NCBI GenBank assembly: GCA_016217905.1
Contig: JACRFL010000013.1
Coordinates: forward strand, 3,184 to 67,183
Length of the DNA stretch: 64,000 nt
Direction of reading: 5' to 3'
Source: Candidatus Kaiserbacteria bacterium
GTDB lineage: Bacteria; Patescibacteriota; Minisyncoccia; Phycocordibacterales; Phycocordibacteraceae
Shown: in pieces, positions 19,917-20,669 of the stretch
Layout of the letters: every line of letters begins with the position of its first letter
How positions within the stretch are numbered: the stretch's first letter is position 1
Notes under the pieces: model-generated
Seen by the model: the letters and a program-made list of their open reading frames with translations, nothing else
What the model was told of the DNA's origin: nothing
Databases searched by the model: none
Made by a program: the position numbers and the translations under genes

Positions 19917-20669
19917 ATGACTCGCGACGAGAAGTGGCTCTTGGAGGAAAAATATCATGGAAACGCGACAGTCGCATATGCGGCGGATGCGAAGCGGCTC
20001 GCCTCCGGCGAGCCGCTCGGCTATGTGATCGGCTGGCAGCCGTTTCTCGGCCTCAACATCTATCTCGATTCGCACCCTCTCATCCCCCGCCCCGAGACGG
20101 AGTGGTGGACGGAGCAACTTCTAACCAACTTGGAAGCGAAGCTTCCAATTGGAAGCTTCGCTTCCAAGTTTAAGTTCCTCGACCTGTGCGCCGGATCCGG
20201 TGCCATCGGCTGTGCCGCGCTCGCGAGACTGCCGGACGCCCGGGTATATTTCGGCGAGATCGATCCGGCGCATACCGCGACCATTGTGAAAAACATTCGA
20301 GAAAATAATCTCGACGAACCACGCGCGGACATCCTCACCGGTGATCTCTTCGGACCGTTCGCCGGTTTGCGCTTCGACGTCATCGCGGCGAACCCGCCCT
20401 ACGTTTCCGCAGGCCGCGCGCTCCCCTCAAGCGTCGCGGGCTACGAGCCGGCTACGGCCCTCTTCGCCGGAGAGGATGGCCTCGATATCATCCGCCGCAT
20501 CGCGAAAGAGCTTTCGAAATATCTTAAAGAGAGCGGTACCGCGTGGATCGAGTGCGACAGCGCGCACGCGGCAGCCGCGTGCGCGCTCTTCGCGGAGCAG
20601 GGATTCGACGCACAGATACGCACCGACCAATACGGCGACTCGCGCGTTCTCGTAGTATCATTCCCCTGA
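19917..20669 (+). CDS. prmC: Release-factor glutamine N5-methyltransferase
   Basis: DLCAGSGAIG SAM motif and NPPYV catalytic motif. ATG 19917. Contains the 44-nt palindrome at 20127-20170. Confidence 0.8.
   Translation: MTRDEKWLLEEKYHGNATVAYAADAKRLASGEPLGYVIGWQPFLGLNIYLDSHPLIPRPETEWWTEQLLTNLEAKLPIGSFASKFKFLDLCAGSGAIGCAALARLPDARVYFGEIDPAHTATIVKNIRENNLDEPRADILTGDLFGPFAGLRFDVIAANPPYVSAGRALPSSVAGYEPATALFAGEDGLDIIRRIAKELSKYLKESGTAWIECDSAHAAAACALFAEQGFDAQIRTDQYGDSRVLVVSFP
20127..20170. repeat. 44-nt perfect palindrome inside prmC (family A-related flanks)
   Basis: AACTTGGAAGCGAAGCTTCCAA|TTGGAAGCTTCGCTTCCAAGTT. Encodes NLEAKLPIGSFASKF. Confidence 0.9.

Follow-up and report, generated by a model that had tools for sequence, protein, structure and literature searches.

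The prmC gene of a Candidatus Kaiserbacteria bacterium (contig JACRFL010000013.1) contains a perfect 44-nt palindrome within its reading frame, which raises the question of how such a sequence came to lie in the gene of a conserved enzyme and how its two halves have stayed complementary. The host belongs to the candidate phyla radiation (CPR), bacteria with tiny, streamlined genomes that are not expected to tolerate repeats in essential genes. The genome was examined as a 64-kb stretch of this contig (the window, to which coordinates refer unless another locus is named), together with prmC loci from relatives. On this evidence the 44-mer is probably a doublet of a dispersed palindromic repeat that resembles repetitive extragenic palindromic (REP) sequences and their hairpin-forming doublets (REPINs), with PrmC tolerating it, in translated form, in a permissive linker.

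A fused hairpin doublet in the PrmC linker

The palindrome lies on the forward strand at 20127..20170 and reads AACTTGGAAGCGAAGCTTCCAA|TTGGAAGCTTCGCTTCCAAGTT, with 22-nt arms that are 100% complementary and no spacer; the next pair outward (20126 C, 20171 T) is mismatched. As a preliminary description of the locus had stated, it is built from two mirrored 19-nt hairpins, fused head to head. The first, TTGGAAGC-GAA-GCTTCCAA (20130..20148, +), has a stem of 8 bp and a loop of 3 nt, and the second, TTGGAAGC-TTC-GCTTCCAA (20149..20167, +), is its reverse complement. The 44-mer folds as single-stranded DNA with −23.8 kcal/mol (z = −10.6), and its 104-nt context folds as RNA with −55.6 kcal/mol (z = −7.2). 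None of 100 dinucleotide shuffles reached the match count of the 19-mer, which has no copy in the window beyond the prmC doublet, and by our own arithmetic, assuming uniform base composition, about 4e-9 palindromes with 22-nt arms are expected per 64 kb. The sequence is far beyond chance, in line with the first assessment; the 44-mer is neither a chance occurrence nor an isolated oddity.

The host coding sequence (19917..20669, ATG to stop, +) was assigned to prmC/hemK from TIGR00536, TIGR03534 and a structure model. Its 250-aa product scores 128 bits against the TIGR00536 HemK family (cutoff 115.5) and 185 bits against the TIGR03534 PrmC equivalog, slightly below the cutoff of 199. It contains the S-adenosylmethionine (SAM) motif LDLCAGSGAIG and, as ANPPY, the NPPY catalytic motif; its best PDB matches are the HemK structures 1NV8, 1SG9 and 2B3T, and a 100% identical protein is on record as Candidatus Kaiserbacteria PrmC. 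The palindrome encodes N71-F85 (NLEAKLPIGSFASKF), immediately N-terminal of FLDLCAGSGAIG, which confirms its reported position in frame directly before the SAM motif. An AlphaFold model with a predicted local distance difference test score of 86.8 has a helix at 59-75, a loop at 76-81, a short turn at 82-84 and a strand at 86-89, so that residues 71-85 are predicted to form a surface segment comprising the helix end and the loop into the SAM-binding strand beta-1.

The preliminary description had suggested that alignment of orthologues might reveal 14-15 extra amino acids here. Excess residues are indeed present, but not as a clean insertion: the net gain is about +4 relative to the canonical linker of the sister clade (HLKERFGDTPF), +7 relative to Thermotoga HemK (1NV8), where the HMMER gap at FASKFK corresponds to the right arm, and +11 relative to the shortest relative (L011). 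The encoded peptide is a modest surface elaboration, not a clean 15-residue insertion.

Several simple readings of the 44-mer were rejected. Exact excision or bypass fails because 44 is not a multiple of 3 and because, in every relative, the reading frame stays open through the segment, which makes translation the simplest reading. The stem has a G+C content of 45% and is followed, inside the open reading frame (ORF), by TTTAAGTTCC; an intrinsic terminator was rejected because there is no T-run 3′ of the stem. A miniature inverted-repeat transposable element was rejected because the palindrome is the entire element and CTAACC and TAAGTT, which flank it, do not form the direct repeats of a target-site duplication. 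The 44-mer contains HindIII-MfeI-HindIII sites, but a cloning linker was rejected as its origin, since relatives show the same architecture without HindIII or MfeI sites.

Orthologous doublets in a hypervariable linker

In 160 prmC loci retrieved from genomes and metagenomes, we examined the DNA that lies between the PR.ETE and DL.AGSG motifs. When 38 homologues were aligned, the sole hypervariable part of PrmC proved to be the stretch between ETEWWTEQLL and FLDLCAGSG. The linker between the PRPETE and DLCAGSG motifs ranges from 28 to 93 codons in the clade, which bears out the earlier description of this junction of PrmC/HemK as length-variable. Strong ungapped palindromes were found in the linkers of 29/149 loci, and strongly self-complementary linkers (fold z < −3) account for 54/99 distinct sequences in the hypervariable clade, compared with 0/15 in the sister clade and 4/27 elsewhere. 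The linker hairpins of the hypervariable clade fall into at least three unrelated sequence families. Families among the palindromes include CAACTTGGAGG..CCTCCAAGTTG (NLE..SKL), CATGTAGGACGT..ACGTCCTACATG (HVGRRTSYM), GGACATCCGATGTCC (RTSDV) and others, and several of the palindromes are doublets; doublets of other families occur in L019, L067, L088 and L123. Long linkers are long composite hairpins, as in L005 (−51 kcal/mol, z = −9.9), and some relatives carry hairpin inserts of 75-105 nt at this site.

Tracing the closest relatives with NL...KL peptides to their DNA showed orthologues of the window doublet, equal in length and frame, in six other genomes. Perfect palindromes of 42 to 46 nt occupy the same codons in L161, L162, L165/166 and L095/098, and the orthologous doublet of L163/164 has one mismatch; L095 and L098, which come from separate samples, are identical at the doublet. 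The refuting case named in the preliminary description, relatives with this peptide in non-palindromic code, does not hold: the related peptides that they carry at this site are themselves encoded by perfect palindromes. Spaced doublets of 58 nt are present in L167, an NCBI Kaiserbacteria genome, and in L001. The units of L167 are both 19-mers of the window in swapped order, with the GAA and TTC loops reversed, and lie 12 nt apart.

An alignment of eight doublets, comprising seven orthologous fused doublets and one degenerate copy (L135), shows how the arms have changed. Pairing is retained in 93% of its cells, compared with 22-49% in a control in which the partner was slid by 1-3 columns. Half of the pairs (11/22) have changed on both sides, in 30 cells, and a single one-sided G:U was found. 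All six pairs that differ between the window and L095 are compensated, and every change in the spaced doublets of L167 and L001 is found in all four of their arms. Such coordinated arm changes with virtually no wobble argue for copying of one arm from the other rather than for step-wise selection on an RNA helix.

Dispersed repeat families and insertion hot spots

The outer bases of the 44-mer had been described as matching the flanks of a repeat family, family A. They are shared with family A hairpins, whose outer arms are AACTTGG...CCAAGTT, but one copy of the family at the least (10587) lies within a gene and is not a flank. Exact matches to CCAACTTGGA number four in the window, three of them at family A hairpins (10584, 42379 and 42398(−)); when up to one mismatch is allowed the number rises to eight, against 2.3 expected, and no shuffle reached that count. 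Family A is found at no fewer than six non-orthologous sites, namely the prmC linker, 10587, 38453, 42379, L034:8103 (a different gene and a different frame) and L103:1474 (near prmC). The window itself holds four family A-type copies, with a unit length of 23-29 nt. Apart from the prmC doublet these are single units: ACTTGGAGGCC-C-GGCCTCCAAGT at 10587..10609 (+), in frame as NLEARPPS within a gene for an FAD-linked oxidase (10217-11965, +), and two units without an assigned strand, one at 38453..38475 between convergent genes (RNase II/R-like and SMC-like) and one, CCAACTTGGAGGTCCGGCCTCCAAGTTGG, at 42379..42407 between an L32-containing ORF and a nusB-NUDIX gene.

Clustering of the hairpins from all loci showed further dispersed families. 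A family that bears GTAG, ATGTAGGACGT-acg-ACGTCCTACAT, encodes NVGRRTSYM at 35366-35390 in trmD (34954-35622, −), and other genomes have this palindrome and peptide in their prmC linker; the family is present in the prmC linkers of at least 12 other genomes and at the oxidase site of L032/L119. The ACCGAAGTC family occupies sites in hisS (22428) and rnhB (43441) and, at 48222, follows a stop codon and is trailed by a T-run. A 33-nt core that recurs in many long prmC inserts marks another element. It is in frame in prmC linkers, can face either way (L028 and L090 have it flipped) and is not confined to prmC. Scans of viral contigs for the 19-mer, family A and the GTAG family found nothing.

Besides the prmC linker, two genes have hot spots of this kind with empty alleles. 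At the oxidase site (10587), about 15 relatives are empty and read EVG-DGYA. Family A units fill the site in the window and in L024 and L039, where the inner stem of each is compensated in its own way. The GTAG family fills it in L032/L119, a 46-nt doublet of the ACCGAAGTT family in L123, and further inserts in others; three unrelated families fill it across genomes. TrmD is 85-90% identical among relatives and has one variable spot, after AVEKALK. This spot is empty in P0164, P0187 and P0151, and elsewhere holds single units (NVGRRTSYM and compensated variants), doublets (RISKDVRRPTSHVGRRTSYM) or the GFRKP..GLRNP family, which is likewise found in prmC linkers. Measured against the empty alleles, what fills the oxidase and trmD sites is truly inserted DNA, about 27 nt long. 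The families shared among the oxidase, trmD and prmC sites indicate that the same families enter different genes and that the same loops take different families. A search for genome pairs of 90-99% identity that show recent gain or loss gave none that was informative, the fetched loci being either near-identical or about 80% identical.

The window as a whole is rich in such structures. It contains 36 perfect hairpins (stem ≥ 9, loop ≤ 6) compared with 3.1 ± 2.1 in second-order Markov controls, and about 26 of the 36 lie inside ORFs. Coding DNA holds 27 perfect hairpins with stems ≥ 9 compared with 3.35 after synonymous-codon shuffles, and ten with stems ≥ 11 compared with 0.23, whereas a 50-kb control region of E. 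coli has nine perfect hairpins, two of them coding. The hosts of these hairpins are core genes: prmC, hisS, dnaG, trmD, rnhB, pheT, dnaE and the genes for the FAD-linked oxidase and an LCAT-like protein.

Palindromes formed in place and maintenance of the arms

Two further perfect palindromes in prmC have the same length as their counterparts in non-palindromic relatives. Site A, AGCGGCTCGCC-tcc-GGCGAGCCGCT (19993..20017, +), encodes RLAxGEPL, and one of its arms is the universal GEPL motif; site B, AGCGCGCACGCGGC-a-GCCGCGTGCGCGCT (20559..20587, +), encodes SAHAAAACAL. The sites are common to about 48 and about 26 related loci, respectively, and their outer pairs covary. Pairing at site B is bimodal, with either 0-10 or 14-16 of 16 pairs formed, and its perfection accompanies E-to-A and R-to-C replacements. 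Both palindromes were apparently formed in place, at the cost of amino-acid changes, which also include an A for a variable residue. A comparable case is CCTACCGAAGTC-a-GACTTCGGTAGG (22428-22452), which encodes LLPKSDFGR in the linker of HisS (21499-22734, +) between the catalytic and anticodon-binding domains. The length of this linker is fixed, LLPK is ancestral, and the same codons carry another palindrome, CTCGCGCCCGC-a-GCGGGCGCGAG (LAPAAGAS), or none in other genomes. At the oxidase site, the arms of L123 and L032 extend into ancestral flanking codons. Together, these in-place cases fit template switching during replication, which can homogenize arms, extend them and invert spacers.

Among hairpins of ≥ 12 bp, 296 are perfect and 36 have one mismatch. 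Single-mismatch coding hairpins have A:C ten times and G:T four times on the sense strand, which, in these small numbers, is no excess of G:T. Rfam scans of the prmC region and of the loci of four relatives gave matches at chance level, none of them at the linkers. These observations, together with the one G:U against 30 double changes in the doublets, the occurrence of the core element in both orientations, the GAA and TTC loops, which have traded places between the window and L167, and the absence of a T-run, argue for maintenance of the arms at the level of DNA rather than of an mRNA fold. Template switching is known to preserve perfect inverted repeats (PMC5941160, PMC8794818; see also PMC8604942) and is probably what keeps the arms identical here.

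Origin of the 44-mer

The repeat families are dispersed over unrelated sites, the loops that they occupy are hot spots, and the doublet architecture is conserved while the arms change together. We propose that a family A-type unit was copied into the prmC linker and then doubled by inverted duplication, unless it arrived as a REPIN-like pair. Intrastrand template switching in the course of replication (quasi-palindrome correction) would keep its arms identical, since it writes a change in one arm onto the other, and could flip the loops. The element would accordingly be selfish or near-neutral DNA and not a regulator of prmC.

Several observations weigh against this REP/REPIN-like origin. The 44-mer and family A lack the GTAG/CGTC tag of classical REPs; neither GTAG/CTAC nor CGTC/GACG occurs in 20120-20177. 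The inner stem of the 44-mer differs from those of the other family A copies of the window, the inner 19-mer is single-copy in the 64 kb, and the count of copies covers 64 kb of the genome. Other HemK proteins have their ordinary helix end where the left arm lies. The palindromes at sites A and B and in hisS formed without any change in length, so that mobility is not needed to account for coding palindromes here. Genomes that share a linker family are weakly clustered by the rest of the protein (72-73% versus 70% identity, p 0.005-0.05), and with this weak clustering vertical descent and repeated insertion are not separable. Finally, a scan of 48 window ORFs found no transposase of any kind, and neither a Y1_Tnp/REP-associated tyrosine transposase (RAYT) nor a HUH domain. 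Because the tag is absent, the copies are mostly intragenic and these ORFs include no RAYT, the elements are described as REP-like and are not placed in the REP family proper.

The window encodes three proteins of types that could act on hairpin DNA, namely a PIF1-like helicase (4485-6152, −), an RNase_H_2/PolB-type 3′-5′ exonuclease-like protein (22739-23320, +) and a PD-(D/E)XK nuclease (24001-24843, −).

A more far-reaching version, which we regard as tentative, is that Kaiserbacteria and their relatives have an active, hairpin-directed copy-and-paste process, driven by an unrecognized enzyme or by microhomology-mediated template switching to distant donor hairpins. Palindromes may then be written repeatedly into the same permissive loops of essential proteins, with existing hairpins serving as landing pads on which copies nest, pair and flip.

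Alternative explanations

A purely local origin is possible for this prmC copy but, taken as the whole explanation, unlikely. Here, template switching in place (snap-back) in an unconstrained linker would have created the palindrome, and the likeness to family A would reflect convergence or shared local ancestry. The palindromes at prmC sites A and B and in hisS, which match the length of non-palindromic versions and have one ancestral arm (GEPL, LLPK), speak for it, and the bimodality of site B is what a one-step conversion would be expected to produce. The placement by HMMER of the left arm on the Thermotoga HemK helix end, with the gap in the right arm, is also consistent with this origin, as are the arms of L123/L032 that run into ancestral flanking codons and published examples of the process (PMC5941160, PMC8604942, PMC8794818). 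It does not account for the recurrence of 19- to 27-nt sequences in unrelated genes and intergenic regions, within and across genomes, for the roughly 27-nt insertions in the oxidase gene and in trmD, which belong to unrelated families in different genomes where other alleles are empty, or for the exact occurrence of CCAACTTGGA in three other hairpins of the window.

Selection for a nucleic-acid hairpin that acts in gene expression, as a ribosome pause, a means of transcript protection, a processing site or a protein-bound cruciform, is conceivable but improbable, and has no positive support. It could explain why over half of the hypervariable clade keeps some strong hairpin at the prmC site although the sequences turn over, why the hairpin is very stable and why pairing survives many double changes; moreover, the related-family member at 48222 is terminator-like, following a stop codon and carrying a T-run. 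However, many close relatives (L011, L002, L017, L082 and others) have no linker hairpin and the sister clade never does, the same elements occur in unrelated genes, and the related core element is found in both orientations relative to prmC. The near absence of G:U from the doublets, with no G:T excess on the sense strand, likewise counts against it, and the 44-mer has neither a T-run after it nor an Rfam match.

It is very improbable that the peptide is selected, for instance as a functional loop near the SAM pocket or the release-factor interface, with the palindromy of its codons incidental. Eight genomes do share the pattern NL-x-x-x-(L/P)P-x-G-x-x-(S/A)K(L/F), but this is the exact translation of the conserved outer arms, and the inner residues vary freely while the DNA arms stay complementary. 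Hairpins of this kind are lost on synonymous shuffling, and other relatives have unrelated peptides or none at the site.

An assembly artefact, a fold-back or chimeric join of the sort to which assemblers are prone at palindromes, is hardly credible, because the arms are merely 22 nt long within ordinary in-frame prmC flanks, independent assemblies from different projects have a doublet of the same length, frame and architecture (with L095 identical to L098 from a different sample), and both 19-mers are present in the NCBI Kaiserbacteria genome L167.

Further hairpins and neighbouring genes

Additional hairpins were noted in the course of the analysis. The 48222-48242 member of the ACCGAAGTC family (minus strand), TAGGGAAGTC-a-GACTTCCTTA, lies directly 3′ of a TAA stop, with TTTT behind it. 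This makes it a terminator-like relative of the 22428 and 43441 copies and the only member of its family with a G:T wobble. The element with the 33-nt core is a hairpin of about 75 nt with an invariant apical core, GGTAGTAAGACTTGGCC(T/G)AGCGGCCCGGAGCGCG, also written GGTAGTAAGACTTGG.../GGTAGTAAGAC..., which carries GTAG. It was found at L032:2231-2330, L039:10202-10301, L054:6047-6146, L006:14684-14708 and about 12 other loci, none of them in the window. Its stem of about 21 bp covaries, with compensated changes at 21/31 predicted pairs, and no Rfam match to it was found.

In most of the loci L001-L160, the interval between the gene for an RRM protein and prmC holds a long, perfect A-tract...T-tract hairpin, at about 20-60 nt upstream of the latter and with stems of up to 24 bp (L016:9938-9988 and L005:9684-9730, for example; 19662-19700 in the window). 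It resembles a bidirectional terminator, and its stems vary among genomes yet remain perfect. Two other long hairpins in the window adjoin stop codons. A 46-nt hairpin with perfect 21-bp arms (52299-52344) has a 4-nt loop that holds the stop codon of a sortase gene (52321-52998, −), one arm being the last seven sortase codons, and has no T-run. A 40-nt perfect hairpin with 18-bp arms (60569-60608) lies directly 3′ of the stop of a gene for a cohesin/Ig-like surface protein (60612-62324, −) and also has no T-run, so that it is not a canonical intrinsic terminator.

Two other regions of the window were noted. A 939-aa ORF at 48244-51063 (−), which has no Pfam match, contains internal direct repeats of 272 nt (49697 and 50057; 78% identical) and CCG/CCT-rich triplet runs, and probably encodes a repetitive surface protein. 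At 616-3710 (+), three consecutive paralogues of glycoside hydrolase family 130 (mannoside phosphorylase) are followed by a phosphomannomutase-like HAD gene.

Relation to known repeats and implications

Intragenic REPs of the GTAG/CGTC type and REP dimers are known to encode 20-30 aa (Di Nocera et al. 2013, PMC3733652), and REPINs have been described by Bertels and Rainey (2011, PMC3116915). The elements studied here share with them short stem-loop units of 20-40 nt in several families per genome, inverted unit pairs that fold into a larger hairpin (the fused doublet of the window, the spaced doublets of L167 and L001), some copies in frame in housekeeping genes and, in two families (ATGTAGGACGT... 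and the 33-nt core GGTAGTAAGACTTGG...), the GTAG tag. In contrast, the 44-mer and family A are untagged, the window copies are mostly intragenic whereas REPs are mainly extragenic, the arms are perfect instead of imperfect, no RAYT was found in the 64 kb, and these elements reside in the very small genome of a CPR bacterium.

Rickettsia palindromic elements (RPEs), as they are cited in PMC3733652 and PMC1779305, are in-frame ‘selfish DNA’ in protein-coding genes. According to those accounts they are likewise palindromic repeats in frame at tolerated positions of many essential genes, with presence or absence among relatives. RPE-1 is about 100-150 bp long and from another phylum, compared with 44 nt made of 19-nt units here; the likeness is one of placement and distribution. 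Inverted repeats kept perfect by template switching (Lavi et al. 2018, PMC5941160; Monttinen and Loytynoja 2022, PMC8794818; PMC8604942) show the same identical arms, two-arm changes and inverted spacers or loops, and coding quasi-palindromes made perfect with amino-acid changes as a by-product, as at prmC sites A and B and in hisS; template switching alone, however, accounts neither for units that are identical at unrelated loci nor for the true insertions seen against empty alleles. Animal mitochondrial genomes also contain many perfect inverted repeats in functional coding genes with both arms translated (2019, PMC6649704), but those reach 284 bp and lie in conserved regions, whereas the repeats here are short, belong to dispersed families and lie mostly in variable loops of bacterial proteins.

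The kind of element is already known from intragenic REPs, REPINs and RPEs. Its occurrence in CPR bacteria appears to be new: our literature search on palindromic elements in Kaiserbacteria, Parcubacteria or CPR bacteria found no report. The coding DNA of the window has about ten times more perfect hairpins than shuffled sequences or the E. coli control. If the REP/REPIN-like origin is correct, CPR bacteria would gain a counterpart of the Rickettsia elements, and length-variable ‘CPR-specific insertions’ in conserved proteins could be read as repeat insertions rather than as functional adaptations. The orthologous hot spots, with dozens of empty, single, double and inverted states, would then form a natural data set on how inverted repeats are created, homogenized and flipped. 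For annotation and protein modelling, palindrome-encoded segments should not be taken for conserved functional motifs. Should the more tentative copy-and-paste process prove real, much of the new loop sequence in the proteins of these minimal genomes would come from it.

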